Below are positions 2 to 57,781 of a stretch of 57,781 nt of DNA, piece after piece. The position numbers and the translations under genes are program-made. Each line of letters starts with the position of its first letter. Positions within the stretch are counted from its first letter, which is position 1. The notes below the pieces were generated by a model. That model saw nothing but the letters and a program-made list of their open reading frames with translations. It ran no database searches and was not told the origin of the DNA. This DNA comes from a virus (taxonomy: Duplodnaviria > Caudoviricetes), in the IMG/VR virus record IMGVR_UViG_3300028025_001015, positions 1-57,781 of that record. One strand, given 5' to 3'.

Positions 2-1159
2 CCCCAACAACCGCCCAAGCAAACCCCCAAGCAACCTTCCCAACAACCCCCTCAAGGTGACGGCGGTGAAGGCCAGGGCCAAGACGGTGAAGGCCAAGGC
101 CAGGGCCAAGACGGTGAAGGCCAAGGCCAGGGCCAAGACGGCCAAGGCCAAGGTAAAGATGGTGAAGGCCAGGGCCAAGAGGGCGAGGGTCAAGGCGCAG
201 ACGGTGAAGGCCAGGGCCAAGGTGACGGCCAGGAAGGCCCCTCAAACGGCCAGGAAGGCCCCCAAAAAGAAGGCGGCAAGGGTCAGGGTACACCTACCCC
301 CAAAGCGGCCCCAGAGGCCCCTAAAGAGGCGTTCAGCCCCGTCAACAAAAAAGGTGAAATGGTCAAGGCCGTGGAGACCGAGCCAAGCGCAGAAATCCCT
401 GAGGGCGCACAGGGTCACGGGACATACGACAAGGGCGCAAAACTTTCCCGCCCAGGCGCTCACGTTGGTTCCCTTTGCCACGACATACAGGTGACCGTAC
501 CTGCCAAGATGCGCTATGACCTCAAGCGCATGTTTGACAAGTCAGGCATGGAAGAGTTTCAACCTGGGCGCAAGACCGGGGCCTTGAACGTCCGGGCCTT
601 GCCATCCCTGGCCCGTGGCAATGACCGCCTGTTTAAACGCCGCATGGAAGTGGAAGGGATCGACTCTGCGGTTGTGATTGTCCTGGATGTTTCCGGGTCA
701 ATGGAGGAGGTTTCCAGTGGGTATCGGATCAAGTCAGCGGTCAAGGCTTGCGCCGCCCTGTTGGAGTCCCTCAATGCCGCCGGGGTTGCCACTTGCGTCC
801 TGACCTTTGCATCGACTACCAGCGTTCTGAAACCCTGGGCCATGCCCGTGAAGAAGGCCCTGGGCGAAATCAAAGGGGTACGTTGCGGATCGACAACCAA
901 CGATTACTTTGCCGTCAAGTATGCCCATGAGTTGCTGTTGGCCCGGACTGAGCAACGCAAGGTTTGCTTTGTGATCACTGATGGCGGCGGCGCTTACTAC
1001 ACCTCCCTCCAAGTGGAGTCGGGTCAGCGCCTGGGTCTGACCACTGTAGGCGTGGGGATCGGCGTGGACATATCCGATACCTACCCTCAGTCGGTATGCA
1101 TCGATGACGTATCCAAGTTGGGTGAGGTTGCATTCAATCAAATCAAATTAGCCGCATAA
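2..1159 (+). CDS. CobT-like von Willebrand factor A (VWA) domain protein, 5'-truncated by the window edge
   Basis: The frame of ORF 359..1159 is open back to base 2 (PQQPPKQ...GDGGEGQGQDGEGQGQGQ...). It carries the MIDAS motif DVSGS, a later T and ITDG. An acidic G/Q linker before a VWA domain is typical of phage CobT-like partners of MoxR/CobS ATPases. Confidence 0.8.
   Translation, partial: PQQPPKQTPKQPSQQPPQGDGGEGQGQDGEGQGQGQDGEGQGQGQDGQGQGKDGEGQGQEGEGQGADGEGQGQGDGQEGPSNGQEGPQKEGGKGQGTPTPKAAPEAPKEAFSPVNKKGEMVKAVETEPSAEIPEGAQGHGTYDKGAKLSRPGAHVGSLCHDIQVTVPAKMRYDLKRMFDKSGMEEFQPGRKTGALNVRALPSLARGNDRLFKRRMEVEGIDSAVVIVLDVSGSMEEVSSGYRIKSAVKACAALLESLNAAGVATCVLTFASTTSVLKPWAMPVKKALGEIKGVRCGSTTNDYFAVKYAHELLLARTEQRKVCFVITDGGGAYYTSLQVESGQRLGLTTVGVGIGVDISDTYPQSVCIDDVSKLGEVAFNQIKLAA
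63..240 (+). repeat. Imperfect tandem repeats of GGTGAAGGCCAGGGCCAA encoding a (GEGQGQ)n linker
   Basis: Repeats are directly visible and lie in frame with the VWA gene. Confidence 0.85.
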
Positions 1160-1168
1160 GGGGGAACC

Positions 1169-1342
1169 ATGAAAGGCTTTTTCAAACGTGCATACATGGT
1201 GGGGCCGGGGGGCATGACCTGCCCCTGTTGCGCCCCTCAATCGGGCAACAAGTACGCCGCCCGTGCCCGTCAACTGATGGACAAGCAAAGCAAGCGCCGC
1301 CTGGAGCGCATCATCAATCATTTAAACAAGGAGCAAGCATGA
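1169..1342 (+). CDS. hypothetical protein (57 aa, CPCC motif)
   Basis: Manual translation MKGFFKRAY...CPCCAP...KEQA. GGGG SD-like run upstream; ATGA overlap with the next gene. Confidence 0.6.
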   Translation: MKGFFKRAYMVGPGGMTCPCCAPQSGNKYAARARQLMDKQSKRRLERIINHLNKEQA

Positions 1343-1719
1343 AAACCTATCGACTATCCATTGACCTGACCAACCCCGTGCATGACAAGCGTTGCGGGAC
1401 GGGTCTGAAAAGCTTTCCCAAAATCAAGGCCGGGACGCTGTTTGAGGGTGAACCAACCCATATTAACTCCGCAAATGGGGGGATCACCCCCGCCTATGTG
1501 CGGTGCAAGGATTGGTACGCACAAGGCGAGGTAGCCGCCTTGGTGATCGGCAATTCATTTGAATCAGCGCCCGAAACTTGGCGTGAGATTGCAATTTGCG
1601 ATGGCGATTGGAGCCATTTTGCAGATGAGGTGCTTGATCAATTATTGGCAGATGAATTGGTGACCGTTGATCAGGTTAAAAATACTTTAAGCAAATGCCT
1701 AAGCAAGGAACCAGTATGA
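1339..1719 (+). CDS. hypothetical protein
   Basis: ORF 1228..1719 re-started at MKTYRL, which follows an AAGGAG SD. Confidence 0.7.
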   Translation: MKTYRLSIDLTNPVHDKRCGTGLKSFPKIKAGTLFEGEPTHINSANGGITPAYVRCKDWYAQGEVAALVIGNSFESAPETWREIAICDGDWSHFADEVLDQLLADELVTVDQVKNTLSKCLSKEPV

Positions 1720-2000
1720 AAATTTTTAACTTCTCAGCGAATGGCACTGACTTTGGAAACTGGAGCGCCCCGGACAAGGCCCAGGCGATGGAGCATTTCG
1801 CAGGTGATTCGGGCTATGTATCCTGGGCCGCCATGGTTGCGGACAGGGATGAATTCGGGGGCGACAACATAGTGGTGGCAGAGGTTGCAAACCTCCAGTT
1901 CATTCTGGAGGATGCCCTCACGGCGCTGACCAAAGGGGACAAAGACACGGCTATGTGTTGCATCGACAAAGCTTTGGAAATGGTGAAGCAAGATGAATGA
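1716..2000 (+). CDS. hypothetical protein
   Basis: MKIFNF start after AAGGA; ATGA overlap with the previous gene. Confidence 0.7.
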   Translation: MKIFNFSANGTDFGNWSAPDKAQAMEHFAGDSGYVSWAAMVADRDEFGGDNIVVAEVANLQFILEDALTALTKGDKDTAMCCIDKALEMVKQDE

Positions 2001-2169
2001 GTTTAAACAACTGCTTGAGAAAATGGATTGGACTTACCAATTCTCCGACCACTACGGCACGTTTGAGAAGGGCCGTGCGGATATGTGGACTTTGCAAAAA
2101 CTCGCCCGTGACCTGGGGCCAGAGGCCAGGGCCATGTTAGAAAAGGCATTGGCGCATCACCATGTCTAA
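1993..2169 (+). CDS. hypothetical protein (58 aa)
   Basis: Manual translation MNEFKQLLEKMDWTYQFSDH...; fills the gap between coupled ORFs. Confidence 0.6.
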   Translation: MNEFKQLLEKMDWTYQFSDHYGTFEKGRADMWTLQKLARDLGPEARAMLEKALAHHHV

Positions 2170-2407
2170 CCTCACCCCCCAGGAAATAAAAGCCTTCACG
2201 GAGGCCCAGAATCGCATGCTGGACGAGTTAAGTCACATGATCCTGGGTTACCCCTACGACCCGGAAATGAAAGCCTCTATCGTCCTGCATATCGCCGCCA
2301 TCATGGCCGCCTCGCATGGCATGTCCCATGAGGATTGGATGTTCAAGGCAGAATACTTTTACACCGGTTGCCGTTTAAACAGACCTACCCGTGACGAGGT
2401 GCATTGA
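2162..2407 (+). CDS. hypothetical protein
   Basis: ORF track; overlaps its neighbours in operon fashion. Confidence 0.6.
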   Translation: MSNLTPQEIKAFTEAQNRMLDELSHMILGYPYDPEMKASIVLHIAAIMAASHGMSHEDWMFKAEYFYTGCRLNRPTRDEVH

Positions 2408-2492: not shown

Positions 2493-2699
2493 ATGCCTGT
2501 AAAGGCCATCTCCAACCCCGCCCTGGTTGGTAAGGGCCTTGCCCTTGTCCCCGACCCGTCCCACGTTAAATCAGGTGAGCGTTACATCGTCCTGACCAAT
2601 CGTTGGGAGGTCTATCAGATGGGGGTCAACCGTTACCCCCGCCTGTGTGGGAAATTCCCAAACATCCACGCTGCCATGTTCAAGTGTTTAAACAAATGA
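2493..2699 (+). CDS. hypothetical protein
   Basis: ORF track only; start uncertain. Confidence 0.4.
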   Translation: MPVKAISNPALVGKGLALVPDPSHVKSGERYIVLTNRWEVYQMGVNRYPRLCGKFPNIHAAMFKCLNK

Positions 2700-2780
2700 T
2701 GGCAGCCAGCCTGCTGCGGTTTGAATTTAAACACCTAGCTCACCGGTAGCTCATGGCCCGCTGCACGCTACGTTTAAACA

Positions 2781-4481
2781 TTAGAAGGCGTCCAGGGTTT
2801 CGGTGTACGTCCCGGCGGTTGGGTTGAACTGTAGGACTGTCTCGCCCTGTGCGCCGACCCAACGGTGACGGCACTTCCATACTGCGATTTGAACGTCCTT
2901 GTCTTGGCCCCGATGCACCGTGACCCCTACGTCAGTCTTGGCCCACCACGCCATCGACCCGCTGATGGACATGCCGTCTGGCCTTGGTTGTTCGACCCCT
3001 GACCTTGTGATTTTTGATGGGTGAGCAACGAACCATGTGTGGCAGTCATTGGCCTTGCAGAATTTCTGAACCCTGGTGAGCATGTCACTGATGGCCTGGG
3101 TTTCTGATGCGTCCTTGTTTAAATCAATGTAGTTGTACGGGTCAATGACCAGCCCCCGTGCCCCCATTCTTTTCACTGCGACCCTCGACCTTTCCAGGAT
3201 TGAATCCATCGTGCTTGGCTCTTCGCCGTTGGTATCAATAAACAGGAAATGATCCTTCACCCATTTAAACGCTTGCGCCTTTTCGTCTGCGCTCATTCGG
3301 TTTTTGCCCTCAAAGAACCGCTTGTTCATGTAGATTTCCATGAGCCTGGAGATGTGTATCTCAGGGGCATTCTCAAATGAACACACTGCAAACTTCCAAT
3401 CCTCTGCTTTTGCCAGATTGACCATGACCTGATCAACAAAGTTGGACTTGCCCGAACTTGGGTAACCTGTCACGACCGTCATCTGACCGGGCACGACCGT
3501 GTAAATGCTGTCCACTGATGAGTAGCCGGTGCTGAAGCCACGTCCCACGCCCTTCGCAAACATGTCGTTTAAACGATCCTCATACACGCCTGGATCCGAC
3601 AGCCCTGCGATGGGGTAGGGGGTGGCCCCGTCAATAATATCCTTCAGTACTTGTGACGGGTCATCGACCATGAAGTCATCCTTGGCGTTGAGGAAGACTT
3701 CGTTTAAATCCTTGCCGGTGAACTTAGCCAACCTGCATTTGTCTTTGCCGATGCGCCTTGCCAACTCCTCGGCCAAGGCTTGTCCGGGAATGTCTTGGTC
3801 AGTGGCAATCACAACATACGGGGCCGCTTCAATGATCTCTCTGGCGTTCCACACAAAGGCAAACTTCTTGTCCTCAGACGCAGAAACCTTACCGTCTGCA
3901 ACCTTGATGGGTGCGCCACCCGGCACGCTGACCACATTGTTTAAACCAATCTCCATGAGGGTCAGGCAATCAATCTCACCCTCCACGATGATGATTGGCT
4001 CACCCTTCTTGACCTCGTCCAACCCAAAGAAATCATGTGCCCCGCCAGCGTCCTGTGTGAAGTCCTTCTCTGGGAATGATCGGTACTTGGCTGATACCAG
4101 TGCCCCGTCCCGGTAGTACGGGAAACCAATGGCATCTGCGGTTTTAGATAGCCGGGAGAAATATTTGTCTGCGGCGAACAATCGCATTCGATCTGCGGTC
4201 TGAGGGGATATGCCTCTGGTCTTTAGGTAATCGTAGTGCTGGCTCTGAAGTTTGTTGCTTGTAATTTTTACGGCGGGGACAGCAGACAATTTACGCTCCT
4301 TGTGTGGTTGGATAGACCCGTTGGAATAACAGTGGTGGCAGTGATAGACAACGGCCCCGTCAGGTTTGCGGGTCAGTGTCATGTCTTTCTGGTTTTGTTT
4401 TCTGCGCTCTGGTGAGCACAACGGGCAGGACACCCGTGTTGATTCATTGAAATGGAACTGGTCAATGAAGTCTGCGTTCAT
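2781..4481 (-). CDS. Primase-helicase (T7 gp4/Twinkle-like: Zn finger, TOPRIM, SF4 helicase)
   Basis: CPLC...CHHC Zn finger; TOPRIM motifs IVEGEID and DQDIPG; Walker A GYPSSGKS; VIDPYN; AHPSK; SISGS. Confidence 0.93.
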   Translation of the reverse strand: MNADFIDQFHFNESTRVSCPLCSPERRKQNQKDMTLTRKPDGAVVYHCHHCYSNGSIQPHKERKLSAVPAVKITSNKLQSQHYDYLKTRGISPQTADRMRLFAADKYFSRLSKTADAIGFPYYRDGALVSAKYRSFPEKDFTQDAGGAHDFFGLDEVKKGEPIIIVEGEIDCLTLMEIGLNNVVSVPGGAPIKVADGKVSASEDKKFAFVWNAREIIEAAPYVVIATDQDIPGQALAEELARRIGKDKCRLAKFTGKDLNEVFLNAKDDFMVDDPSQVLKDIIDGATPYPIAGLSDPGVYEDRLNDMFAKGVGRGFSTGYSSVDSIYTVVPGQMTVVTGYPSSGKSNFVDQVMVNLAKAEDWKFAVCSFENAPEIHISRLMEIYMNKRFFEGKNRMSADEKAQAFKWVKDHFLFIDTNGEEPSTMDSILERSRVAVKRMGARGLVIDPYNYIDLNKDASETQAISDMLTRVQKFCKANDCHTWFVAHPSKITRSGVEQPRPDGMSISGSMAWWAKTDVGVTVHRGQDKDVQIAVWKCRHRWVGAQGETVLQFNPTAGTYTETLDAF

Positions 4482-6587: not shown

Positions 6588-6850
6588 GGGGGGATAACTA
6601 CTTACTTATCCCCCCTTGCACCCGTGGAGACGTACCTATACCCGTGGAGACGTACCTTGTACCCGCCGAGACGTACCTACCACCAAGTTACCACTGGAAT
6701 AAGTTATCTTGTGCCGCCATAAAATTTTTCATGCGTTTAAACATAGCACGCCGAAATACTCCGTTTTGGCACTTTTCGGAGAAACTCCACGCCGAAATTC
6801 TCCACCCCCCCTATAAGGGGGGAGGAGATTTCGGAGGGGTTTCCGGAGTG
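6585..6850. repeat. Iteron-like direct repeats and inverted repeats; replication origin candidate
   Basis: 13-bp perfect inverted repeat 6585-6597/6606-6618. Three copies of ACCCGyNGAGACGTACCT at 6620, 6640 and 6661. Long imperfect inverted repeat about 6776-6847 centred on C-run/TATA/G-run. Confidence 0.55.
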
Positions 6851-7109
6851 TCTGTATGTTGAAACTGCCGGTTTGGAATGACACAGCGTTTAAACACCAA
6901 AATAAAATAATCGATTTCAATGTCCTGCATGTCCTGAAGTCCAGGTAAATATGCGTTTAAACGCATAGCTTCAGTCAAATAACGTCAAATAGAAAACAGG
7001 TACTCCAGATGCGTATCTGACCGGAATATTTAAACATGACCTACAGCAGTGTTGTCGCTGCTTGTAGTTTTTCCGTGTAAACTGGGGCCTTCAGACGTTC
7101 CTCCTGGAT

Positions 7110-7544
7110 TTAGCCCTGCCCTAACCGGCGGGGCTTTTTTTTGGGAGCCACCTCCGGGATACATTCCACAAGGATCTCTGTGCGTGGTTTATCGGGGTCA
7201 AGACCCCAATATGTATGCCGCTCCTTCACCTGCCGATCATTGGCATATATAAGGCCCTGCATCAAGTCCAAGATCAATGACTCGTCCAGGTCTGGTCTGC
7301 GGCTGGCATAAAAGATCCACATGGTCACACGCAGATCCCCCTCCATCAGCTTCGCCAATGGCCTGCACTGCTGTTTAAACACATCCGAGTAGCTCAAAGC
7401 CTTGGCTGACTTGATCAATCGGGACATGCCGCCGAAGTGAACAAGCCGCCTGGAATTGGCCTTGCTGGCTGGCTCACCAAAAATAATTTGAGAAAGTGCT
7501 TGCAAGCTGTCAACACTATCGCTATCATTGCGTTGTAATGTCAT
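7110..7544 (-). CDS. rusA: RusA-like Holliday junction resolvase
   Basis: GEPASKAN; RRPDLD; DLMQG..YANDRQV; PRTEI. Start uncertain. Confidence 0.8.
   Translation of the reverse strand: MTLQRNDSDSVDSLQALSQIIFGEPASKANSRRLVHFGGMSRLIKSAKALSYSDVFKQQCRPLAKLMEGDLRVTMWIFYASRRPDLDESLILDLMQGLIYANDRQVKERHTYWGLDPDKPRTEILVECIPEVAPKKKPRRLGQG
7111..7142 (+). terminator. Intrinsic terminator
   Basis: AGCCCTGCC-ctaacc-GGCGGGGCT hairpin followed by a T-run. Confidence 0.65.
7500..7528 (+). promoter_or_regulatory. sigma70-like promoter of the recombination/accessory operon
   Basis: TTGCAA-17 nt-TATCAT upstream of a GGAG SD and ATG 7565. Confidence 0.6.
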
Positions 7545-8431: not shown

Positions 8432-9095
8432 CCTGCTGAAACTGAACGTCAACGACCATACCGAAAAGAAGAATGGTCTGACCTACCTGTCATGGGCATG
8501 GGCATGGGCAGAGGCTTTGAAGGCCGACCCTGCCGCCTCATTCAACGTGCATGCCTTTGATGGCAAAGCGTACATGGATGTAAACGGCACGGGCTTGGTG
8601 TGGGTAACCGTCACCATGTTTGGAAAGCCAATGACCTGCATGCTCCCGGTGATGAACCACCGCAACCAGCCCATCCCGGCTCCCAATGCCTTTGAGGTCA
8701 ACACCGCCATCATGCGTTGCATGACCAAGGCGCTGGCTCTGCATGGGCTTGGCCTGTACATCTACAGCGGAGATGACCTCCCGATGCAGGAGGCAGAGGT
8801 CATCACAAAGGCTGATACAGCAGAGGTTGAGGCCATGGTAACCAAGGCCATCGAAAAGGCCGTGGAAACCGGGGATGCAGACCTTGCAAACAAGGAACTG
8901 TTTGCTGACGGGATGATCAAGTACTGTGATATTTGCAAGGATATGGGCGCATTGAAGTCTTACTGGAAGGCCAACCAAGGCCAACTGGATGACCTCAAGC
9001 GTTCACATAACGACCTTTACAAGAAGGTCTTGGCACACTTCACTAACGTGAAGGCAACTTTTAACGAAAAGGAAAAATCTGATGGAACCGTTTAA
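8418..9095 (+). CDS. Sak/Rad52-like ssDNA annealing protein (DUF1071-like)
   Basis: LTYLSWAWAW; LPVMNHRN; NTAIMRCMTKALALHGLGLYIY. AAGGAG SD before MNVIDLL. Confidence 0.88.
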   Translation: MNVIDLLKLNVNDHTEKKNGLTYLSWAWAWAEALKADPAASFNVHAFDGKAYMDVNGTGLVWVTVTMFGKPMTCMLPVMNHRNQPIPAPNAFEVNTAIMRCMTKALALHGLGLYIYSGDDLPMQEAEVITKADTAEVEAMVTKAIEKAVETGDADLANKELFADGMIKYCDICKDMGALKSYWKANQGQLDDLKRSHNDLYKKVLAHFTNVKATFNEKEKSDGTV

Positions 9096-9372
9096 ACAAA
9101 AAGCCGATGCTGGTCGCCTCATGGCCGCTGAATCGAAGATGTCCCAACTGTCCCCCGATTACTACGGGGAAATTGCAATCAACCTTAAGGACATGGCAAA
9201 TGTCCAGACGGTGGATGGATTGCATGTCTTCAAACTCAGCGGCTGGAAGAAACAGTCGAAGGCCGGTAAGACCTACCTGAGTATTGGCATCAAGCGCAAG
9301 GTTGCTGAGTCTGCAAAACCTGTGGCGAAGTCATCTGGGTTTGATGACATGGCCGATGACGTACCCTTTTGA
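9082..9372 (+). CDS. Putative single-stranded DNA-binding protein
   Basis: PDYYG...SGWKK..GKTYLS pattern; acidic C-terminal tail DDMADDVPF; follows exonuclease and annealase. Confidence 0.75.
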   Translation: MEPFKQKADAGRLMAAESKMSQLSPDYYGEIAINLKDMANVQTVDGLHVFKLSGWKKQSKAGKTYLSIGIKRKVAESAKPVAKSSGFDDMADDVPF

Positions 9373-14441: not shown

Positions 14442-14466
14442 ACAATAATTTTTTTTGGAGTGAACA

Positions 14467-44528: not shown

Positions 44529-45460
44529 TATGTGCCACCAGAGCCAATGAATGACTGACGGGGAACCAACCGCAAAGCGGCCTTTTCATGGTCTTCCCCA
44601 GCCGCCAGATTGAATTGCTCATCGTAGGTTGCCTTCAGCATATCCATCCGTCCCTGCAATTCAGGAACCTTCATGGCGATGTAGTAGGCCAGCCCTGCCA
44701 CCACACATGGCAGGAAGCGGAAATTCATGTCAGCAGTCTCTACACCAGCCCCGGCATCCTGCACCCTACGCATGCGCCAGTACACAAACGTGTAGGTGGT
44801 GGTGTCATCAGGGGTGGGCCATACCGTGACGGCGGGAAGCTGGGGCACGAAGACGGCAGTGGCAGTTATGTGCGAGGCCGCAACGGTGTTTGCTTGCGCC
44901 CGGAAGCAGTTGCTCAAAACATTCCCGGCGATGTAGTTGTAATAAATTATTTCATTATCCAGCTTGATGTACCCTGCCGCTGCCAAGCCCACGACAGAGT
45001 CTAGGGTGATTGAGGTGGCTGTGCTGGTAATTGCGCCGTTTAAACTTAATGCAGTTGACCCGGTCTGGCCTGAATTGCGCTGGATTAGAACCTGAATGGG
45101 TCTGGCCTGAGTCAGTTTATTGGGGATCGTGGCATAGGTACTAACGCTTATGCGAGTGATCGTCAGGTCAGCTTGATTGGTCGTTGAGTTCTGTCCCGTT
45201 CGAATAACGTGCTCCAGAAGATCAATCGTATCGTCCGGTAAAGGGTATGTGTTTAAACCGGCAGTAAGCTCAAAGGAGCCTTGCTCAATCGTCCACATGT
45301 TTAAACCACGATTCTGCCATTCGATGGTCATCAAATTCATGGAGCGGCGTGCCGTTCTAAGGTCATAACCAGACCTCATTTCCCGACCCGCACGCTCCCA
45401 TGACTCCTCGGCTATCTCCGTGAAGTCCATGTCGAATACTGATGTTCCTGTGGTTGTCAT
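44528..45460 (-). CDS. Putative head-tail connector protein
   Basis: 310-aa ORF in the structural block; ARRS.NL...W.NRG.N.W...GLAYYIA.K. Function is inferred. Confidence 0.55.
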   Translation of the reverse strand: MTTTGTSVFDMDFTEIAEESWERAGREMRSGYDLRTARRSMNLMTIEWQNRGLNMWTIEQGSFELTAGLNTYPLPDDTIDLLEHVIRTGQNSTTNQADLTITRISVSTYATIPNKLTQARPIQVLIQRNSGQTGSTALSLNGAITSTATSITLDSVVGLAAAGYIKLDNEIIYYNYIAGNVLSNCFRAQANTVAASHITATAVFVPQLPAVTVWPTPDDTTTYTFVYWRMRRVQDAGAGVETADMNFRFLPCVVAGLAYYIAMKVPELQGRMDMLKATYDEQFNLAAGEDHEKAALRLVPRQSFIGSGGT

Positions 45461-45968: not shown

Positions 45969-46363
45969 ATCTTCCCACGGGTCTTACCCCGTTGAGCAAT
46001 GCCATCGGCACGGCTGGATGCAGTACCACCAGAGGCCATCTTCTTGCCCATAGGATTGCGATACATCAGAGCCGCACCACCTTTGGTTTCTGCGCTGGTG
46101 AATCCTGCCTTACGGGCTTTTTCAGAGAAAGAAGGTTTCTTCTTGGTCTTAGTTTTGGTCTTGGTCATCTCTTCGCTGTACAACTCACCCGTCTCAGGGT
46201 TGCGTTTAAACTTTGATTTAGCGCCGGTTTCGTCTTCAACATCCATTCCCATGTCGCCACGGGGTTCGGCTATTTCGCCCATGTCGGTAGGTGCGGGACG
46301 CTCATCTTCAGCACCGCCCACCAAGCTTCCATCTTCACCAGCGTAACGCTTCATTTTGTTCAT
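45962..46363 (-). CDS. hypothetical protein with GG...SRADGIAQRGKT motif
   Basis: ORF track; C-terminal motif shared with two neighbours. Confidence 0.7.
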   Translation of the reverse strand: MNKMKRYAGEDGSLVGGAEDERPAPTDMGEIAEPRGDMGMDVEDETGAKSKFKRNPETGELYSEEMTKTKTKTKKKPSFSEKARKAGFTSAETKGGAALMYRNPMGKKMASGGTASSRADGIAQRGKTRGKMC

Positions 46364-47807: not shown

Positions 47808-48050
47808 TCAGCATGCCCACGCCCGAAGGGCTTTGTTAATCCGTGAGTTTGGATCTCTTGCAGTCTTCTCTGAAGTCAATTTTTCCTTCATCCCACTCAT
47901 CCTTGCACAGAAAGAGTCTCGCCTGCTGCCGCCCTCTGGTTGCGGAGGCTTCAGGTTCATGCCCTGTTTTTTCGCAGAGGCCCGACCCTTGGCGTTTAAA
48001 CCGCCCTTGGGGTTCTTGCCTTCTTTGCGTGTCCATGCGGGGCTACCCAT
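47808..48050 (-). CDS. Small basic hypothetical protein
   Basis: GGLN.KGR...RR.SFCARM...SRIN..LR.W.C. Confidence 0.7.
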   Translation of the reverse strand: MGSPAWTRKEGKNPKGGLNAKGRASAKKQGMNLKPPQPEGGSRRDSFCARMSGMKEKLTSEKTARDPNSRINKALRAWAC

Positions 48051-49860: not shown

Positions 49861-49970
49861 TCTCCATGCGTTAAGGTGTATCAATCTTGCATGACAGTCT
49901 GCCGGGACAGTTTGATACACCGGGTTTCCCGGAATGCCTCATTTATACCATGTAGTTTAAACGGACACAA
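49861..49970 (-). promoter_or_regulatory. Promoter plus structured 5' leader
   Basis: TTGTGT-17 nt-TATAAA with TGn. 10-bp stem 49875-49884/49912-49921, with possible pseudoknot pairings. Confidence 0.55.
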
Positions 49971-51999: not shown

Positions 52000-52948
52000 T
52001 TGTACTTCTCCTAATTTCCAGAACCTTACGAGCATAGAGTTCCAAAGGAATTCCAAGCCGCTTGGCGATGTTGACCTCAGAGGCCGTCAGTGTGATCTTT
52101 TTAGGAGCAGTACTGCGACTCGCCGAAGCAACTACATTTGACTTTGGGCGGCGATTCGCATCACCGGGTTCCGCAGACTCAAACTTATCTGGGAACACTT
52201 GGCGCAACCTACCGTTTAAACGCTGGTAGTATTCGTCACTTTTCGGGTCTACACCCTCCTCATTGATGAGCTTGTTATGCACTGCTAATGCAAAGCCCGT
52301 CATTTCAGTGTCTGGCCCAAACCAAGGGTTGGCACGCTGCCAATCTTCGGCTCTTTCATCGGGTTTTGGAGCACTTGGACTCGTTTGTACAACATTTTCC
52401 TGGGCCTGTAAAGGCTTCGGCTTAAAATTGTTTACACGATCTGCCTTGATTTTAGCGTTAGTTAGCTCTTCTTGGGCATCGACCAGGGCTTCTGAGTCTC
52501 CGTCCTCGTAGGCTTTCTTGTACTTGGCTTTGGCTTGGTCAATTTCTTGAGCAATTGTGCGCTTTACTTGGTCGAGCATGATGTTCTGATTGGAATCAAC
52601 CGTGCCCTTAAGGCGTTGATTTTCCTCATAAACCTGCTGTGCAATGCGTATAGCCTCCTCTTTTTCACGCAGAGCGGCTTCTTTTGCCCTGCGTTCATCG
52701 TGGTAAGCCTTGTGGAATTCACGGGTTTTGGTTCGATCCCGCTTGGAATACGTTGCCAATTCCTCGTCTGTGGGTTCTTCGGGCGGGGTTTTCATTGGCT
52801 CCCGGCCACGATCTTCCTCTGGGGTATCGTCAATTACCTCAATTTCCGGTTCATCGGACTCAGGCTCAACGATCTTGCCGCCAGCTTTGGATTGTTTTTC
52901 TTCCACCTCATGTGGAAACTCAAACTCAGTTTTTTCAATTTCAGCCAT
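51992..52948 (-). CDS. Putative scaffolding protein
   Basis: Acidic N-terminus, coiled coil, W...NPWFG, terminal IAKRLG.P.E.YA; lies between portal and capsid genes. Confidence 0.65.
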   Translation of the reverse strand: MAEIEKTEFEFPHEVEEKQSKAGGKIVEPESDEPEIEVIDDTPEEDRGREPMKTPPEEPTDEELATYSKRDRTKTREFHKAYHDERRAKEAALREKEEAIRIAQQVYEENQRLKGTVDSNQNIMLDQVKRTIAQEIDQAKAKYKKAYEDGDSEALVDAQEELTNAKIKADRVNNFKPKPLQAQENVVQTSPSAPKPDERAEDWQRANPWFGPDTEMTGFALAVHNKLINEEGVDPKSDEYYQRLNGRLRQVFPDKFESAEPGDANRRPKSNVVASASRSTAPKKITLTASEVNIAKRLGIPLELYARKVLEIRRSTNG

Positions 52949-53548: not shown

Positions 53549-55920
53549 TGATTCCGTTTAAATATGTCCACTTGAACTTTCTGGTTGGCCTGCTTCTCCT
53601 GCGAAGCAATCCGGGCCATGTCCAATTCCTTCTGGTTTGCAATGCGCTGCGCCTCAATGTTTAAACGCTCCTGGGCGATCTGGGCATCAGTCTGATCCTT
53701 TTGCGTTTTGCGCTGCACATCAGCTTGCTTGATTTGCAGTTCCTGCTGTTGCATTTGAACCATGGGATCTTGCGCCTGTTGTTGGGCTTGGGCCTGTTGG
53801 GCCTGGGCCTGATTTGCCTGGAGGAGTTGCTTCGCACCATCGGCCACCAACCGGGACACCTGCACTTCGATGTCCTCTGGCAGTTTCTGGTCAGGGGGAG
53901 GCAAGGGAACGCCGATCTGCTCTTCGATCTTTCTTCGATACTGGAACGCCAAGTGCTCTGCAATGTGGGACATTGCCGCCGCCTGGATCTTCTGGGCCAT
54001 CGGGTTTTGTCCGATAGTCTGGGCAATCATTGGATCCTGCATGAAGGATGTATGAGCGGCGATGTGGGCATCGTGGTCTTGGTAGATAAATGCCTGGGTT
54101 GGCTTCCCGTTGAGGAAGGCCATGTTTTCGCTGACAGGATCCCGTGGGGTTTGGTCATCGTCCACTGGAACCAGCTTATCTGCGTTCTTAATCCCCAAAA
54201 CTTCAATCATTTGACGGTGGAGTTGGGGTAAGTTGTAGATCTGCGGGGCTTGAGCGGCCAACTGAATCACGGCCTGATACTGCATGATCCGCTGGGCCAT
54301 CGTGCTGGAGTTCGGGTCACTAACCGGAATCACCTCAACGATGTCGTAATCAGCCTGTTTGGCCTTTCGGTTCCCGCCCTGTGGGTCGTATTCATACTCA
54401 CTGGGCGCATAGTCCCGAATGATCCCCTTGAGCAGCTTGAATTCCTGCTTCATGGAGTAATGGACACGGGCCTGAACGGCTCCCATGGTTTTCAGGGTTC
54501 TTTCCAGAATTGCCAGGGTTGTCCCCACGGGGGCCTGGGAACTCATATCGCTGATCTTCATGTCAGAGATGGAACCCAATCTGCGTCCCTCTTCTGTGAT
54601 CTGATTGAGCAGAGTCAAGAGGGTTGCGCTGGGTTCCTTATAGGGGAGCGCCATGACGTTGTCTTTGATCGCTCCACTGGGAACGTCTACGTCCCGGAAT
54701 TCACCTGGAGCGATTGGCGTATCGTCACCTTTGATCCTCATGCCACGGGACTTCAGTCCACCGGGCAGATTGGACAGAGTCCCCGCATCAACCAACTGGC
54801 GAATCAGGGAAGTACCCGCACGGGCATAACCACCGATCACATGGATCAGTCCCATCCCGTAGAAACCAAACCCTGGGATATAACAGTAGTCCACGAAATG
54901 CTGGCGCTTGGCTTTGTGATCATCATCTTCCAGCCAGTTGCGGTAGATTGCCAAGACATCCCCGGTTCCCCGGTCGATGGTCACCACATAGGGCAGGGCA
55001 ATACCGGTAGGCTCCCCGTCTTTGTCCACATCCTCAAACCCCTCAATGTCCAGGTCGGTGTGGATCTCAAGGATCTGGTAGCGATTGTCATCGGAAGCTT
55101 TGTAGCCCTGCTGTTCGGCTTTCTTCTTCTCAATGTCCGTCATTATGTTGACGGGATCGCCCAGGTCTATATCCCGGTAGAACCCGTTGACCTGAAGCTT
55201 CTTGATCTCATTCTTGGTCTTACGCATCACATGCGTGACCCGTTCTGCGTTGTTTAAATTTGATGCCCCGTAAGGCACGATTACGTCCTCTGCCGGGATG
55301 TACAGGGCCACCTGTCTTCCCATGGCTGGGTCGTAGTAGACCTTTTTAAACGCAGAACCTGAAAGCCCCAGGGAGTAGAGCATCCGTTCGTGCTCTGGGC
55401 GGTACTCAGGCATTTCTTCCGTCAGCTTGAAGTTCATGTCATCCCTGACACGTTCTGCTGCGTCTTCCTTCATCTTGTCAATCGCACCAATGATCTCGGT
55501 TTTGACCGGCCCTTGGGCTGGGAAGGTTTCCATGATGGACTCAGCCTGAAACTTGATGGCCGCTTCCGTCAAAATGGTTGAGAAGACTCCGCATGCCCCG
55601 TTCCAAGGCTGCGTTCTTTCTTCATAGTTCATGCCCAGAACTTCCAGGCCCTTGACAAAGGTTTCTGCCCAATCCTTGCGTGAGGATATGTCAGCGTCCA
55701 CTAACTCCATGAGGTCAGATGAGATGGTGGCAAGCTCACCCTCGTCCAGTATTTCTGCGAGGTTTGAGTCAAAGTCCCCGCCGTAATCATTTTCAGGCTC
55801 CAGGGTGATCTCAACGTCCCCGGTGTCAATCGTTACAGACTCCGGGTCTTCAATCTCAATACTCACGCCACGATCCATACCTGTGGGCGCTGGGTAAATT
55901 GCTTTGTCAAAGTTAGCCAT
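53545..55920 (-). CDS. Portal protein
   Basis: 791 aa directly after TerL; GS.FKKVYYD; Q-rich C-terminal region as in P22-type portals. Confidence 0.85.
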   Translation of the reverse strand: MANFDKAIYPAPTGMDRGVSIEIEDPESVTIDTGDVEITLEPENDYGGDFDSNLAEILDEGELATISSDLMELVDADISSRKDWAETFVKGLEVLGMNYEERTQPWNGACGVFSTILTEAAIKFQAESIMETFPAQGPVKTEIIGAIDKMKEDAAERVRDDMNFKLTEEMPEYRPEHERMLYSLGLSGSAFKKVYYDPAMGRQVALYIPAEDVIVPYGASNLNNAERVTHVMRKTKNEIKKLQVNGFYRDIDLGDPVNIMTDIEKKKAEQQGYKASDDNRYQILEIHTDLDIEGFEDVDKDGEPTGIALPYVVTIDRGTGDVLAIYRNWLEDDDHKAKRQHFVDYCYIPGFGFYGMGLIHVIGGYARAGTSLIRQLVDAGTLSNLPGGLKSRGMRIKGDDTPIAPGEFRDVDVPSGAIKDNVMALPYKEPSATLLTLLNQITEEGRRLGSISDMKISDMSSQAPVGTTLAILERTLKTMGAVQARVHYSMKQEFKLLKGIIRDYAPSEYEYDPQGGNRKAKQADYDIVEVIPVSDPNSSTMAQRIMQYQAVIQLAAQAPQIYNLPQLHRQMIEVLGIKNADKLVPVDDDQTPRDPVSENMAFLNGKPTQAFIYQDHDAHIAAHTSFMQDPMIAQTIGQNPMAQKIQAAAMSHIAEHLAFQYRRKIEEQIGVPLPPPDQKLPEDIEVQVSRLVADGAKQLLQANQAQAQQAQAQQQAQDPMVQMQQQELQIKQADVQRKTQKDQTDAQIAQERLNIEAQRIANQKELDMARIASQEKQANQKVQVDIFKRNQ

Positions 55921-55928
55921 AATGATCC

Positions 55929-57425
55929 TTAGTAATACTCCGCTTTCCTGCGATAAATGGGTTCATCTGGCTCATCGGATTCGATGGAAATAAACCCGCC
56001 TTGGCGAAACCGCATCAAAGCTTGGCTACTTGAGTCCACAAGGTCATCGTTGTCGCCGTTGGGGAATGAAGCCATTTCTTCTACGACTTCTTCAGCCCAT
56101 CGGTGATCTGGACACCAAACCATCCCGGACGCAAACAGGTCAGCAATAGCGTTTACACGGGCGATCTTATCGTTTCCTTTGCCCGGTGTATATTCCGACA
56201 CCGGAATTCCTGTCCTACGCATCTCATAGATCAAGGGAGCGCCTGCCGCCCTCTTCTCCACGATCAATGTGTCTGGGTTCCATTCCTGATACATCTCATA
56301 CGCCTTCTTCTTTAGCTCCGGGAACTCAAGGCGTTGTTTAAACGCATCCAAGAGGATGATGTTCGGACGTAAGTTGCCTTTTCCATCGGAATGATCAAAG
56401 ATTCCCCAGGTGGTACAGGCCGAATAGTCGGCCCTGTTGTTGGTTTCAAAGGCCGTATCCCAAGATTGGATGATGTAATCACACGGGGGAGGGTCTTCCT
56501 TCTCCCAAAGCCGCCACATATCCCGTTTTATGATGGCCCCTTCCTCTGATGTGGGGTTTTGTTGGTACTGAGCCTCCCATTTGGACACTGGAAGTTCAGC
56601 TTTGAGGGCCTCAAGCTCCTCTTTCTTCCAAAATGCAGGCCACAAAGGGGTTCCAGAGGGCAAAATAGCCGGGAAATCAATCACTTCCCACTCATTTACC
56701 CCGTCTTTCTCCGAATTCTTGAGGATCTGGCCCGTCAAATCCCTTTTTGACCACCTTGTCATCACAATGATGATGGCCCCACCCGGCTGTAAACGCTGTC
56801 GAGGGCCAGATGTGTACCATTCATACACATTGTCAAACACCGCAGGGTTGCCCTGCTTGGCCTCCTGCTCAGAATGCGGGTCATCAATGATCAATATATC
56901 TGCGCCTTTTCCGGTAACGGCTCCCCCGACACCGATGGCAAAGTAGTCCCCACCTTTGTCCGTGTTCCACCGGCCAGCGGCCTTTGAATCTGAAGACAAC
57001 TGCGTATTGAAGATCTTCCTGTAATCCTCCGACTGCACAAGATTGCGGACTTTACGTCCAAACCCCACGGCCAACTCGGCAGTGTGGGCGGTCTGGATGA
57101 TCTTCTTCTCCGGGTGCTTACCCAAGAACCAAGCTGGAAGCAGGTAGGAGGCAAACTCAGACTTGGTATGCCTGGGAGGCATATTGATGATCAGACGTTT
57201 CAAATCCCCATTGACAACACGCTCAAAGGCATTTGCCATGATCTGGTGATGTTTACCCGATATGAATATCGGCCACATCTGTTGGACAAAGAACAGGTAG
57301 GACTCCCTGCACCTCTCAATCCTGTCCATCTCCAGCAGGGCAAAGATCTTCTTACGCTCCGCATCCGGGACTCTGTCCACCATCTGGATATAGCCGTCCA
57401 CTTCCTTACGGGTCAGGAGGCTCAT
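55929..57425 (-). CDS. terL: Terminase large subunit
   Basis: PPRHTKS (Walker A); IIDDPH (Walker B); MTRW; QSWDTA; HDD-like NDDLVDS nuclease motif. Confidence 0.95.
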   Translation of the reverse strand: MSLLTRKEVDGYIQMVDRVPDAERKKIFALLEMDRIERCRESYLFFVQQMWPIFISGKHHQIMANAFERVVNGDLKRLIINMPPRHTKSEFASYLLPAWFLGKHPEKKIIQTAHTAELAVGFGRKVRNLVQSEDYRKIFNTQLSSDSKAAGRWNTDKGGDYFAIGVGGAVTGKGADILIIDDPHSEQEAKQGNPAVFDNVYEWYTSGPRQRLQPGGAIIIVMTRWSKRDLTGQILKNSEKDGVNEWEVIDFPAILPSGTPLWPAFWKKEELEALKAELPVSKWEAQYQQNPTSEEGAIIKRDMWRLWEKEDPPPCDYIIQSWDTAFETNNRADYSACTTWGIFDHSDGKGNLRPNIILLDAFKQRLEFPELKKKAYEMYQEWNPDTLIVEKRAAGAPLIYEMRRTGIPVSEYTPGKGNDKIARVNAIADLFASGMVWCPDHRWAEEVVEEMASFPNGDNDDLVDSSSQALMRFRQGGFISIESDEPDEPIYRRKAEYY

Positions 57426-57661
57426 AGGGACAACATCTTCTCAACAGATTTATCAACCAACCGGACACCGTAGAACTTTCTGGGCTTCACCGTGATGAAA
57501 CCATCGGACTTTAGCCTGTGGACAATCCTGTGGATATTGGAACGGGACTTCAACCCAAGACCACGGGCTATCACATCGTAGCTCGGAGGGATGCCGTGTA
57601 AACGCACATAGGCCCGGATAAAGTCCAGGACAAGCTTTCTGCGTTCGGTTACAAGTTCCAT
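57422..57661 (-). CDS. LexA DNA-binding-domain-like HTH protein
   Basis: T.R...VLDFI......G.PPS...IA..LGLKS.S.IH..V..L...G; no peptidase domain. Confidence 0.8.
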   Translation of the reverse strand: MELVTERRKLVLDFIRAYVRLHGIPPSYDVIARGLGLKSRSNIHRIVHRLKSDGFITVKPRKFYGVRLVDKSVEKMLSL

Positions 57662-57781
57662 GGCCGAAGTTTAAACGAGAACAAGTGTTCGTGCAAGCAC
57701 TCACTCACATATATATACCCCCCTGTTTTAAAACAGCTACTTCAGATATGGTTTCTCATATTGATGGGGGTGGGTGGGGAA

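Follow-up and report, generated by a model that had tools for sequence, protein, structure and literature searches.

The window, the whole stretch of phage DNA analysed, is 57,781 nt long. It encodes a gp4-like primase/helicase, an SSB-like protein, a PD-(D/E)XK exonuclease, a Sak annealase, RusA, a conserved HNH endonuclease, a 3427-aa polyvalent protein and virion proteins, and contains 39 exact copies of the palindrome GTTTAAAC, with approximately 1 expected. All 39 coordinates given in a sequence-only reading of the window were matched, with no additional copies. As that reading stated, the word lies both in genes and between them: 30 of 39 copies were inside genes (18 in one open frame and 12 in the other), and 9 were intergenic or at gene boundaries. 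All copies of GTTTAAAC are listed below, with strand entered as '.'.

631..638 (.): within VWA-domain gene (359-1159 +); frame xxG-TTT-AAA-C (Phe-Lys)
2001..2008 (.): codons 3-5 of small ORF 1993-2169 (+); Phe-Lys frame
2373..2380 (.): ORF 2162-2407 (+); frame xGT-TTA-AAC (Leu-Asn)
2686..2693 (.): ORF 2493-2699 (+); Leu-Asn frame
2772..2779 (.): intergenic, directly beyond 3' end of primase/helicase gene (2781-4481 -)
3567..3574 (.): primase/helicase gene; Leu-Asn frame; equivalent position GTTTAAAC in G002/G003, ATTTAAAC in G004/G005
3939..3946 (.): primase/helicase gene; Leu-Asn frame
6735..6742 (.): non-coding region 6030-7100; 12-mer ATGCGTTTAAAC
6888..6895 (.): non-coding region 6030-7100
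6955..6962 (.): centre of perfect 16-bp palindrome ATGCGTTTAAACGCAT (6951-6966)
7373..7380 (.): RusA-like gene (7110-7544 -); Phe-Lys frame
9090..9097 (.): provides TAA stop of Sak annealase ORF (8328-9095 +); codons 3-5 of SSB-like ORF (9082-9372 +)
14436..14443 (.): gene boundary; ORF 14079-14441 (+) terminates at its TAA
15163..15170 (.): ORF 14467-15168 (+) terminates at its TAA
15961..15968 (.): ORF 15508-15966 (+) terminates at its TAA
16369..16376 (.): small HNH endonuclease gene (16158-16451 +); Leu-Asn frame
18034..18041 (.): 3427-aa polyvalent-protein gene (16423-26706 -); conserved in G002 and G003
18486..18493 (.): polyvalent-protein gene
19113..19120 (.): polyvalent-protein gene
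22293..22300 (.): polyvalent-protein gene
23419..23426 (.): polyvalent-protein gene; conserved in G002 and G003
23887..23894 (.): polyvalent-protein gene
24664..24671 (.): polyvalent-protein gene; conserved in G002 and G003
24963..24970 (.): polyvalent-protein gene
27471..27478 (.): ORF 26709-28607 (-)
29921..29928 (.): intergenic, between GAGG ribosome-binding site and ATG of gene 28607-29920 (-); - strand reads CTTGAGGTTTAAACATG
34928..34935 (.): virion structural gene 33614-35710 (-)
37252..37259 (.): ORF 36707-37333 (-)
41081..41088 (.): intergenic, between GAGG and ATG of tail-fibre gene 38942-41080 (-); 17-mer identical to that at 29921
45038..45045 (.): adaptor gene 44528-45460 (-)
45251..45258 (.): adaptor gene
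45299..45306 (.): adaptor gene
46204..46211 (.): ORF 45962-46363 (-)
47994..48001 (.): ORF 47808-48050 (-)
49955..49962 (.): intergenic, downstream of major capsid gene (50010-50921 -)
52214..52221 (.): ORF 51992-52948 (-)
53659..53666 (.): portal gene 53545-55920 (-)
56336..56343 (.): large terminase gene 55929-57425 (-); conserved in G002
57669..57676 (.): intergenic, close to the contig's right end

Abundance, conservation and half-site structure

In dinucleotide-preserving shuffles of the window (n = 100), GTTTAAAC occurred 0.98 times on average (s.d. 0.90, largest value 4) and a count of 39 was reached in none; the reversed control word CAAATTTG occurred once in the window. For the codon null, synonymous codons were shuffled in 1000 runs with all protein sequences and genome-wide codon usage held, giving a mean of 9.56 copies (s.d. 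1.50, maximum 15), of which 7 sit entirely in unshuffled sequence. The excess persisted, with approximately 30 coding copies against approximately 2.5 expected. The maximal-order (6th) Markov expectation of 41 was uninformative because the 7-mers GTTTAAA and TTTAAAC (56 and 58 copies, approximately 3 expected) are enriched by the very same sites. Leu-Asn was encoded as TTA-AAC in 31 of 75 cases (4.3 expected) and Phe-Lys as TTT-AAA in 31 of 56 (13.2 expected). Phe-Lys dipeptides were also in excess as such (56 versus 38.1, z 3.0).

Comparison of related genomes showed purifying selection on the sites: between the window and G001 (91% identity), 31 of 33 aligned copies were conserved, versus 56.5% of background 8-mers, and between G002 and G003 (83% identity), 14/17 and 16/18 were conserved, versus 31%. 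Several sites, judged by eye in unaligned sequences, were also common to R5C and Pan1, with alike flanks. IMG/VR loci of relatives (80 loci, 835 kb) contained 499 copies of GTTTAAAC, versus 7–12 for three control palindromes. The enrichment is not an assembly artefact, as it recurred in most of these independently assembled loci and in cultured phage genomes. The word is a selected signal, as had been suggested from the window; in view of both shuffles, codon choice and site conservation, neither composition nor codon usage accounts for the excess. No published description of this word or system was found in the literature searched.

One-mismatch variants, reported by the earlier reading as numerous, were abundant but position-specific. 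Enrichment was seen at position 1/8 (ATTTAAAC/GTTTAAAT, 20; CTTTAAAC/GTTTAAAG, 11; TTTTAAAC/GTTTAAAA, 5) and for T3>G (GTGTAAAC/GTTTACAC, 18), the sole enriched internal variant in the window; each remaining one-mismatch variant occurred 0–4 times. TTTAAA occurred 79 times in the window, and 75 of these were flanked by G on one strand or both. G was present at 72% of half-sites, so that independent flanks give approximately 41 expected full palindromes, and 39 were seen. The unit is not the palindrome itself, because half-sites vary independently and the non-palindromic GTGTAAAC replaces GTTTAAAC in some phages. What functions appears to be a half-site, T(T/G)TAAAC(G/A), of which GTTTAAAC would be the self-overlapping form; the half-site would be intrinsic to the phages, with CGT(T/G)TAAACG as its putative full consensus.

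Non-palindromic half-sites were divided between sense and antisense in the window (16 versus 13), in Microdon (15 versus 15) and in Zeta1847 (6 versus 7), and the sites act at the DNA level on both strands. Site density was approximately 1 per 0.5–1.5 kb. No architectural periodicity was evident in the window, since spacing there was Poisson-like (CV 0.85–0.91). Spacing was more even than chance in the GC-rich carriers Yang (CV 0.44, P 0.0002), Pan1 (CV 0.49, P 0.004) and R5C (CV 0.61, P 0.03).

A candidate reader

The word co-occurs with an SprT-like protein module of approximately 200 aa, in which a C-terminal KQxTR element is followed by a zinc ribbon. By blastp (E<1e-4) the SprT-like ORF was the sole match linking Venkman to R5C and, likewise, to Pan1, and it alone was common to Venkman, R5C, Pan1 and G002. 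Loci retrieved with a three-copy pattern (94 in total) had a median of 1.47 copies per kb in the 17 carrying the ORF, versus 0.42 in the other 77. Fourteen isolates were picked solely for carrying an SprT-like homologue, and 11 were rich in GTKTAAAC (Venkman 34, R5C 17, Pan1 16, R26L 20, Yang 20, Zeta1847 22, Microdon 43, Bas97 6, Mano 4, ECO1230-10 5 and MQ-4 6), with reversed controls of 0–1 in the 10 of these counted by genome search. The isolates without the word, MW2, PSA20 and Rona, were exactly the three without KQxTR. Three of three IMG/VR loci fetched by protein homology alone were word-rich (38, 3 and 11 copies). The metagenomic carriers came from word searches; the unbiased set comprises these 14 isolates and 3 loci, and collapses to approximately 6–7 independent word-bearing lineages and 2 independent losses.

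In G004 and L047, both TTTAAA-rich and without the G..C flank preference, QSTN replaces QxTR, a covariation that counts as a single evolutionary event. Only 2 full palindromes occur in G005, although its QxTR is retained. The relatives L078, L080, L082 and L084 carry the SprT-like gene with little or no GTTTAAAC and modest numbers of GTGTAAAC/TGTAAACG (7–13 per approximately 20 kb).

The predicted structure of the SprT-like protein (pLDDT 87.9) placed its N-domain nearest to SPRTN, Wss1 and abylysin at middling scores (Z 7.6–7.8), and the Pfam SprT-like match was under the curated cut-off (17.7–22.2 versus 25.6 bits). The protease motif HExxH was lost in G001, L005, L006, L009, G003, G004, L080, L062 and L150, with R26, E27, YPH, Q170, T172, R173 and the Cys ribbon kept; in the window's own lineage the motif is dead and the ribbon retained. 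The gene is absent from the window. Judging from the complete relative G001, it should fall in a stretch of approximately 5.1 kb that is missing from the contig and bridges its two ends; the nearest relatives have the gene, its protease motif dead, approximately 2.6–3.2 kb upstream of that for the terminase. In four metagenomic lineages unrelated to one another, arrays of 4–6 copies of the word, spaced by 23–25 bp, precede the SprT-like gene by 120–500 bp. This regulatory placement speaks for the docking-site reading given next, as do the copies near start codons in Jilinvirus-like phages and in promoter-like units of Zeta1847 described below.

With moderate confidence, GTTTAAAC and its half-site, which selection keeps scattered through the genome, may be taken as docking sites for a phage-encoded DNA-binding protein, for which the SprT-like protein is the candidate. 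A binding site for a phage DNA-organising protein was among the options first proposed; a binding site for a phage protein fits best, as the word travels with one protein family across several host phyla. The Poisson-like spacing in the window counts against this reading. The SprT-like protein, the sole protein common to the compared word-bearing phages, probably reads GTTTAAAC/GTGTAAAC. Its conserved part is K-Q-x-T-R with the zinc ribbon, the Arg of QxTR probably touching the outer G. As for what the binding does, the guess favoured here is that it would act as a roadblock or regulator across the whole genome, like the stoperators of mycobacteriophages; in lineages with intact HExxH, the sites may also hold a DNA-activated protease on phage DNA. 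A second, fast-evolving partner missed by blastp could be the true reader.

Other readings of the word

That a methyltransferase or other base-modifying enzyme recognises GTTTAAAC/TTTAAA, with modified sites protecting or regulating and the SprT-like gene merely co-travelling, is unlikely. TTTAAA and full GTTTAAAC are classical restriction-modification recognition sequences (DraI/AhaIII and PmeI), and the SprT-like gene of Arthrobacter phage Yang is immediately preceded by one for a DNA methyltransferase. G004 and G005 keep TTTAAA (83 and 73) with 2 full palindromes each, approximately 12 being expected in G005, which resembles avoidance of an 8-base cutter. However, a scan of 36 of the window's 77 predicted proteins found no methyltransferase family, blastp gave no methyltransferase common to Venkman, R5C/Pan1 and G002, the asymmetric GTGTAAAC is ill-suited to a palindromic type II site, and neither a 40-fold enrichment nor even spacing is explained by modification alone.

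A transcription signal, in which a phage sigma-like/HTH factor or the host RNA polymerase reads the word as promoter or operator and copies in genes are internal promoters or pause sites, is doubtful to a similar degree. In Zeta1847 a -35/-10-like unit recurs immediately before ATG, with approximately ten copies placed in its 17-bp spacer, a single copy lies 18–20 bp upstream of the SprT-like start codon in 4/4 Jilinvirus-like temperate phages, and two window copies lie between GAGG and ATG. Cluster AZ phages retain a sigma-like HTH protein beside the SprT-like gene (preprint 10.1101/2025.05.26.655371), which could exemplify an alternative reader. The gene-internal position of most window copies, in both frames, the unbiased strands of the half-sites and the lack of -35 or -10 conservation around the window's copies argue against a transcription signal. 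This reading overlaps with the docking-site reading, as a repressor reading the word would give identical promoter pictures.

Slightly less probable again is a replication or recombination signal, namely a primase start, a place where the conserved small HNH endonuclease nicks, or a Chi-like site specific to the phage that restrains exonucleases. It is consistent with the replication and recombination genes of the window, with the site density and with the even spacing in Yang, Pan1 and R5C, expected if a DNA-tracking process must meet sites regularly. Against this, the carriers' replication genes are unrelated (L098 and L156 have different primase families), no replication protein was common to Venkman, R5C and G002, and cutting both strands of the palindrome would break the genome. 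Chi is polar along the genome, whereas no polarity of half-sites was seen along the window.

HIP1 is a host-genome signature in cyanobacteria, and the analogy with HIP1, Chi and uptake sequences, by which the phage would have drifted towards a word of its host, is very improbable and largely refuted by host diversity, unenriched bacterial genomes and purifying selection within phages. Those sequences are host-genome signatures, whereas GTTTAAAC or its variant GTGTAAAC is carried by otherwise unrelated cultured phages of unrelated hosts in at least nine genera and several phyla (Methylophilales, Dinoroseobacter, Pseudanabaena, Arthrobacter, Microbacterium, Streptomyces, Escherichia, Serratia and Achromobacter), and is independent of host. 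Enrichment was found in 0/401 sampled Burkholderiales (maximum 109 copies in 3.5 Mb; the sample includes the unpublished genomes G389, G304, G036 and G215) and 0/5 other genomes; in most of all these genomes the word was rarer than its reversed control. Presence or absence does differ among close relatives, as host switching predicts, and hosts may have been missed in a pattern scan that yielded at least 120 bacterial loci; among the matches listed, none had dispersed enrichment above 0.62 per kb.

Counts, reading frames and half-sites of the word

The 8-letter palindrome GTTTAAAC, here called the word, was counted 39 times in the window, a record estimated to be 92% complete with a GC content of 50-54% along its length; every position listed in the sequence-only reading was matched exactly. 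Dinucleotide shuffles gave a mean of 0.98 copies (maximum 4, n = 100), and the reversed control word CAAATTTG was present once. A total of 77 ORFs were called by codon-usage score with the long genes as training set, and codons were shuffled synonymously genome-wide with proteins and codon usage kept. This gave a mean of 9.56 copies (maximum 15, n = 1000), 7 of which lay in intergenic sequence left unshuffled, so the enrichment survived the codon correction that had been proposed as a way of making it disappear. A 6th-order Markov model expects 41 copies in the window, a figure that 'explains' the count solely through the overlapping 7-mers, which owe their own enrichment to the same sites.

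Eighteen copies are read in the frame xGT-TTA-AAC and 12 in xxG-TTT-AAA-C, and 9 are intergenic or at gene boundaries; the third frame reads TAA, and four of the boundary copies form the TAA stop of plus-strand ORFs. Codon pairs in the window are bent towards the word: Leu-Asn is written TTA-AAC in 31 of 75 cases (4.3 expected, about a 7-fold excess) and Phe-Lys is written TTT-AAA in 31 of 56 (13.2 expected), the Phe-Lys dipeptide itself being in excess (56 versus 38.1 ± 5.9).

A pyrimidine 5' and a purine 3' were found in 55 of 78 flanks of the word, with no conservation further out. The one-mismatch variants, described earlier as numerous, were enriched at the outer position and for T3>G and at no other position. 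The core TTTAAA occurs 79 times in the window (AAATTT, 17) and has a G on at least one side in 75 cases; the two flanks are independent, and at 72% G per side about 41 full palindromes are predicted where 39 were seen. TGTAAAC occurs 35 times on both strands summed, against about 7 in a Markov-2 model. These counts make the unit a half-site, T(T/G)TAAAC(G/A), two of which overlap on opposite strands in GTTTAAAC.

Half-sites outside palindromes were divided 16 sense to 13 antisense, and the non-palindromic forms were interleaved on the plus and minus strands along the window (TTTAAAC 19 and 17, TGTAAAC 20 and 15, respectively). The comparison with Chi was dropped on account of this interleaving, which leaves no strand polarity. 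A signal at the mRNA level, such as a frameshift-like T-TTA-AAC, was ruled out because half-sites favour neither the sense nor the antisense strand and the word is read in either frame. Spacing of the word in the window was Poisson-like (CV 0.85-0.91 versus 0.96-0.99 at random placement), which rules out regular spacing there.

The window encodes virion and packaging families (large terminase, portal, major capsid, SU10-type adaptor and tail fibre) and replication and recombination families (gp4-like primase/helicase, PD-(D/E)XK nuclease, Sak annealase, RusA, an SSB-like protein and a small HNH endonuclease). Further features were as follows.

6030-7100: 1.1 kb without a convincing gene, with three copies of GTTTAAAC, three 21-bp direct repeats (6614-6679), a near-perfect hairpin (6585-6618) and other short repeats; one copy lies inside the perfect 16-bp palindrome ATGCGTTTAAACGCAT (6951-6966)
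11603-12271 (+): 222-aa protein with a sub-threshold match to a class II aminoacyl-tRNA synthetase core (24.4 bits, cut-off 29.3), found outside the window only in the nearest relative, G001
16423-26706 (-): 3427-aa polyvalent protein with Pfam LPD38 and ART-PolyVal (ADP-ribosyltransferase) domains, containing 8 of the 39 copies
29904-29937 and 41064-41097 (-): starts of two late genes with the identical 17-mer CTTGAGGTTTAAACATG, in both of which the word is the spacer between a GAGG ribosome-binding site and the ATG

The first of these looks like an origin of replication or main control region, judged from its repeats. The Pfam polyvalent-protein domains rule out an N4-type virion RNA polymerase for the 3427-aa ORF, and megablast of its gene against the phage collection gave zero matches; a comparable gene of 8.4 kb, annotated as RelA/SpoT, is present in Synechococcus phage MinM2. 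By terminase identity the nearest cultured phages are distant, namely DSL-LC04 (59%), 023Pt_psg01 (55%), the Pelagibacter phages HTVC027P (53%) and HTVC023P (51%), and MinM2 and Planktothrix phage Pag-Yong1 (both 47%). The word was not enriched, and a SprT-like gene was absent, in the parts fetched of DSL-LC04 (34 kb), 023Pt_psg01 (50 kb) and MinM2 (50 kb).

Retention in relatives and counts in bacterial genomes

At least 430 stretches related by terminase were found in IMG/VR, and the best 80 of these (81-100% identity) were examined. In these 80 loci (835 kb) there were 499 copies of GTTTAAAC, against 7, 8 and 12 copies of three control palindromes. Counts for five complete metagenomic relatives are listed in the table.

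Table. The word and its core in complete relatives of the window (relative; length; copies of GTTTAAAC; copies of TTTAAA; remark).
G001; 63.9 kb; 39; 81
G002; 63.2 kb; 49; 85
G003; 64.5 kb; 46; 86
G004 (L310-L313); 64.8 kb; 2; 83; without G-flank preference
G005 (L314-L317); 62.0 kb; 2; 73; mostly GTTTAAAT (34)

When the window was aligned with G001 (91% identity over 38.5 kb), 31 of the 33 copies covered were intact, compared with 56.5% of all 8-mers there, and between G002 and G003 (83% identity) 14 of 17 and 16 of 18 copies were kept, against a background of 31%. Of the window's copies that were mapped across the deeper split (about 62% protein identity), roughly a quarter to a third remain GTTTAAAC in G002 or G003. 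The sites are therefore maintained with some turnover, and the lineages differ in the outer letters, the homologous places in G004 and G005 reading ATTTAAAC, CTTTAAAC or GTTTAAAG. This retention above the 8-mer background, together with the failure of the codon shuffle to account for the count, bears out the original proposal of a selected signal as opposed to a by-product.

In G005 about 12 full palindromes were expected from the half-site frequency and 2 were present, with GTTTAAAT in their place; the pattern of G004 and G005 looks like avoidance of an 8-base restriction site on top of a need for half-sites. In four relatives of 60% GC (L078, L080, L082 and L084) TTTAAA was nearly absent, and the top 8-mers were CGTTTACA/TGTAAACG and GTGTAAAC, the last being a one-letter, non-palindromic variant of the word. 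When gene content was compared between word-rich and word-poor relatives, only four small ORFs of the window stood out (2493-2699, 5160-5369, 10717-10920 and 12956-13207), none of which had a family match.

A host signature of the HIP1 kind, to which the word had been likened, was sought in bacterial and archaeal genomes by a scan for a three-copy pattern. At least 120 loci were returned, with dispersed enrichment in none of the matches listed, and in five whole genomes behind such loci the word was below or about equal to the reversed control. Several Brocadia matches were ordinary, with 118 copies against 98 of the control in G010. Among 401 genomes evenly drawn from the order of G006, a Zoogloea MAG (Burkholderiales; four unpublished genomes were used for counts only; Actinomycetota and Verrucomicrobiota lay outside the survey), none was enriched, the maximum being 109 copies in 3.5 Mb and most falling below the control. 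Enrichment at HIP-type frequency was thus seen in 0 of 406 bacterial genomes counted, which need not include the window's own host. The host signature was largely ruled out by these counts and, decisively, because the phages that carry the word infect unrelated hosts.

Tight three-copy clusters of GTTTAAAC recurred among the matches listed (L179-L298) in several Brocadia/Brocadiaceae, Nitrospirota and Methanobacteria genomes. Genome-wide enrichment was absent in the one Brocadia genome counted, and these clusters are probably local repeats of another kind.

Association with a SprT-like gene in metagenomic and cultured phages

The three-copy pattern was found in 94 loci of IMG/VR, in about 20 of which the word was dispersed at 0.5-2.3 clusters per kb. 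Eight dispersed-word loci (L177, L145, L175, L156, L154, L104, L098 and L164) have no homology to the window and differ in their terminases and primases, with GC contents of 34-55%. In an all-against-all comparison of ORFs, a single protein of about 200 aa with a weak Pfam SprT-like match was common to these loci and G001-G005. In the loci of the closest relatives its gene is found upstream of the terminase gene, at a distance of about 2.6-3.2 kb. Its absence from the window appears to be due solely to the cut contig: the stretch lost is equivalent to 44,851-49,980 of G001, where the gene occupies 47,088-47,750. In a profile search the gene was present in 17 of the 94 pattern loci, with a median of 1.47 copies of the word per kb versus 0.42 in the other 77, and a single-protein homology search of IMG/VR gave three further loci (35-39% identity) with 38, 3 and 11 copies. 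Arrays of 4-6 copies with 23-25 bp spacing were found 120-500 bp upstream of the gene in four unrelated lineages. A ribbon-helix-helix protein of the window (10041-10370) was rejected as reader, being absent from unrelated carriers.

A protein search of the phage collection gave 164 records, and the word was counted in 14 picked for taxonomic spread. Eleven of these cultured phages with a SprT-like homologue were rich in the word or in its variant GTGTAAAC/GTTTACAC (both forms, GTKTAAAC).

Table. Cultured phages rich in the word (phage; copies; genome length; remark).
Methylophilales phage Venkman; 34 GTTTAAAC; 38.6 kb; GC 34%
Dinoroseobacter phage R5C; 17; 77.9 kb; GC 61.5%, 0.05 expected
Dinoroseobacter phage R26L; 20; 79.5 kb
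Pseudanabaena phage Pan1; 16; 72 kb; every TTTAAA is a full word
Arthrobacter phage Yang; 20 GTGTAAAC; 43.2 kb; GC 68%
Microbacterium phage Zeta1847; 22 GTGTAAAC; 47.9 kb; GC 71%
Streptomyces phage Microdon; 43 GTGTAAAC; 53.4 kb; GC 69%
Escherichia phage Bas97 (BASEL collection); 6; 41.0 kb
Escherichia phage ECO1230-10; 5; 41.7 kb
Serratia phage MQ-4; 6; 43.5 kb
Achromobacter phage Mano; 4; 42.5 kb

The word was absent in the other three, Bordetella phage MW2, Pseudomonas phage PSA20 and Microbacterium phage Rona, and the reversed-word control occurred 0-1 times in each of the 10 cultured phages so counted. The 10-mer consensus was CGT(T/G)TAAACG. Carriers include lytic and temperate phages of several bacterial phyla, among them phages in which no integrase was seen. 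Whole-genome blastp of Venkman against R5C and against Pan1 gave the SprT-like ORF as the sole match, and it is the only protein that these three have in common with G002. The word is, very probably, a phage-intrinsic selected signal linked to a SprT-like gene module.

Spacing was more even than chance in GC-rich carriers (CV 0.44, P 0.0002 in Yang; 0.49, P 0.004 in Pan1; 0.61, P 0.03 in R5C; 0.64, P 0.018 for the half-sites of Zeta1847), as would be expected if the whole DNA had to be covered. Orientation relative to transcription was balanced in Microdon (15 versus 15) and Zeta1847 (6 versus 7), and only Yang leaned (4 versus 13). About 10 copies in Zeta1847 are placed within a 17-bp spacer, which belongs to a repeated, apparently promoter-like unit with an ATG at its end, and in the Jilinvirus-like phages one copy stands 18-20 bp before the SprT-like start in 4 of 4.

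Other AT-rich words (CTATACTT, TACTTCTT and TCTATCTA) were over-represented in the Yuavirus-like phages MW2 and PSA20, which may have a different dispersed signal. The densest occurrence of the word was seen in L177 (28 copies in 9.2 kb, 28 of 30 TTTAAA being full palindromes) and L145 (26 in 10.5 kb, 26 of 28); both loci encode a glutamine amidotransferase and an amidoligase, enzyme kinds predicted to modify DNA bases or proteins.

The candidate reader and comparison with known systems

The SprT-like proteins were aligned (18 members). Conservation does not extend to the protease motif HExxH, which has been lost in G001, L005, L006 and L009 (HGLCA in these four) and in G003, G004, L080, L062 and L150, and is kept in G002, G005, L084 and every member from outside the window's family. 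Invariant or nearly so are an N-terminal R-E, Y-P-H, the C-terminal K-Q-x-T-R and a Cys ribbon with a G-Y-x-x-R-x-T-x-K-W hairpin. KQxTR is absent in exactly the three cultured phages without the word, and in MW2 and PSA20 the cysteines are absent also. In G004 and L047 the motif reads Q-S-T-N in place of QxTR, and TTTAAA is kept while the outer G..C is not, which suggests, from a single evolutionary event, that the Arg of QxTR reads the outer G. In the protein tree the division into two word types agrees with the clades, Yang and Zeta1847 grouping with each other, and loss of HExxH is confined to the window's family.

Four of five members scanned matched Pfam PF10263 below the curated cut-off (17.7-22.2 bits versus 25.6), and the fifth matched other zincin families instead. 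A confident AlphaFold model (pLDDT 87.9) was aligned over residues 21-153 with SPRTN (6mdx; Z 7.8, rmsd 3.0, 96 residues aligned), the other neighbours of the N-domain being abylysin (Z 7.8) and Wss1 (5xbn; Z 7.6); the best Foldseek match was SPRTN 6mdw (E 1.2e-3, probability 0.98). The C-terminal Cys ribbon of the model weakly matched MCM and TFIIE zinc fingers. With Z below 8, the model gives moderate support to a zincin protease fold followed by a zinc-binding, putatively DNA-contacting subdomain.

The word is kept where the protease motif is dead, and the conserved role therefore cannot be proteolysis. DNA binding as such, by a regulator or a roadblock, would be the simplest reading; in lineages with an intact HExxH, tethered proteolysis may come in addition. 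The best-supported mechanism, which we hold to be somewhat more probable than its negation, is that the SprT-like zinc-ribbon protein reads the word as its dispersed docking site.

An extension, which we consider unlikely, is a horizontally mobile and previously unrecognised module of word plus reader, in which the KQxTR ribbon would read CGT(T/G)TAAACG and hold the protein in place as a DNA-tethered counter-defence. Tailed phages of at least four bacterial phyla would share this module, their genomes being seeded with the word every 0.5-5 kb, and the SprT-like protein would be stationed through it along all of the phage DNA. There it would block, or cut where HExxH is intact, host proteins that travel along or are attached to DNA, for example restriction enzymes, nucleases of the RecBCD type or silencers; the result would be a sequence-addressed counter-defence tethered to DNA. 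If the SprT-like protein does read the word, a very common and unexplained phage gene, annotated 'SprT-like protease' or 'transcription elongation protein SprT', would gain a concrete function as a sequence-specific DNA reader, and a short word found by counting would be a cross-phylum marker of a phage system that predicts gene content. The need for docking sites would also shape phage genomes at the codon and even the protein level (TTA-AAC, Phe-Lys excess). Several carriers are cultured, including the E. coli phage Bas97, and the idea is directly testable.

The nearest known phenomenon, by analogy, is the stoperator system of cluster A mycobacteriophages, whose stoperators are reportedly the sites of the L5 gp71 repressor. 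Stoperators are 13-bp asymmetric sites, oriented with transcription, present in two to three dozen genome-wide copies in and between genes with further copies at promoters, and are confined to one phage cluster, where the reader is an HTH immunity repressor. Shared with them are the many copies in and between genes (39 in the window, 16-43 in cultured carriers), a candidate phage-encoded DNA-binding reader and further copies at promoter-like places. Unlike stoperators, the word is 8-10 bp with half-sites, its candidate reader is a SprT-like zinc-ribbon protein, it is found in phages of several phyla, and its orientation does not follow transcription, which is the defining rule of stoperators. 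HIP1 (GCGATCGC) of cyanobacteria is similar in its statistics, and is a feature of host chromosomes tied to orphan methyltransferases. Both are 8-bp palindromes, tens-fold enriched in coding and non-coding DNA, with one-letter deviants mostly at outer positions; the word differs from HIP1 in being absent from the sampled bacterial genomes and in following a phage gene.

Known members of the SPRTN, Wss1 and SprT group of DNA-dependent metalloproteases bind DNA irrespective of its sequence, and their targets are DNA-protein crosslinks. The phage protein would share with SPRTN/Wss1 the modelled N-domain fold, HExxH in most members and a zinc-binding subdomain after it; unlike in SPRTN/Wss1, several lineages can do without the protease motif, and the conserved part is correlated with one particular DNA word. 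No literature on GTTTAAAC, GTGTAAAC/GTTTACAC or the 10-mers in phages was found, although supplementary files may hold mention, and 'TTTAAA' is absent from the main text of the R5C (PMC5454422) and Pan1 (PMC9837993) papers, whose supplements may differ. SPRTN/Wss1 and ArdC of plasmid R388 (PMC7213743) appear to be the nearest proteins by analogy. ArdC is described there as combining DNA binding with a zincin metalloprotease domain and letting incoming DNA escape host restriction; it binds single-stranded DNA without a known motif, and the phage protein is likened to it by description and not by homology. In a preprint on cluster AZ (10.1101/2025.05.26.655371), from the main text of which 'TAAAC' and 'TTTAC' are absent (the supplement may differ), the SprT-like protein is presented as conserved, DNA-binding and located close to the integrase.
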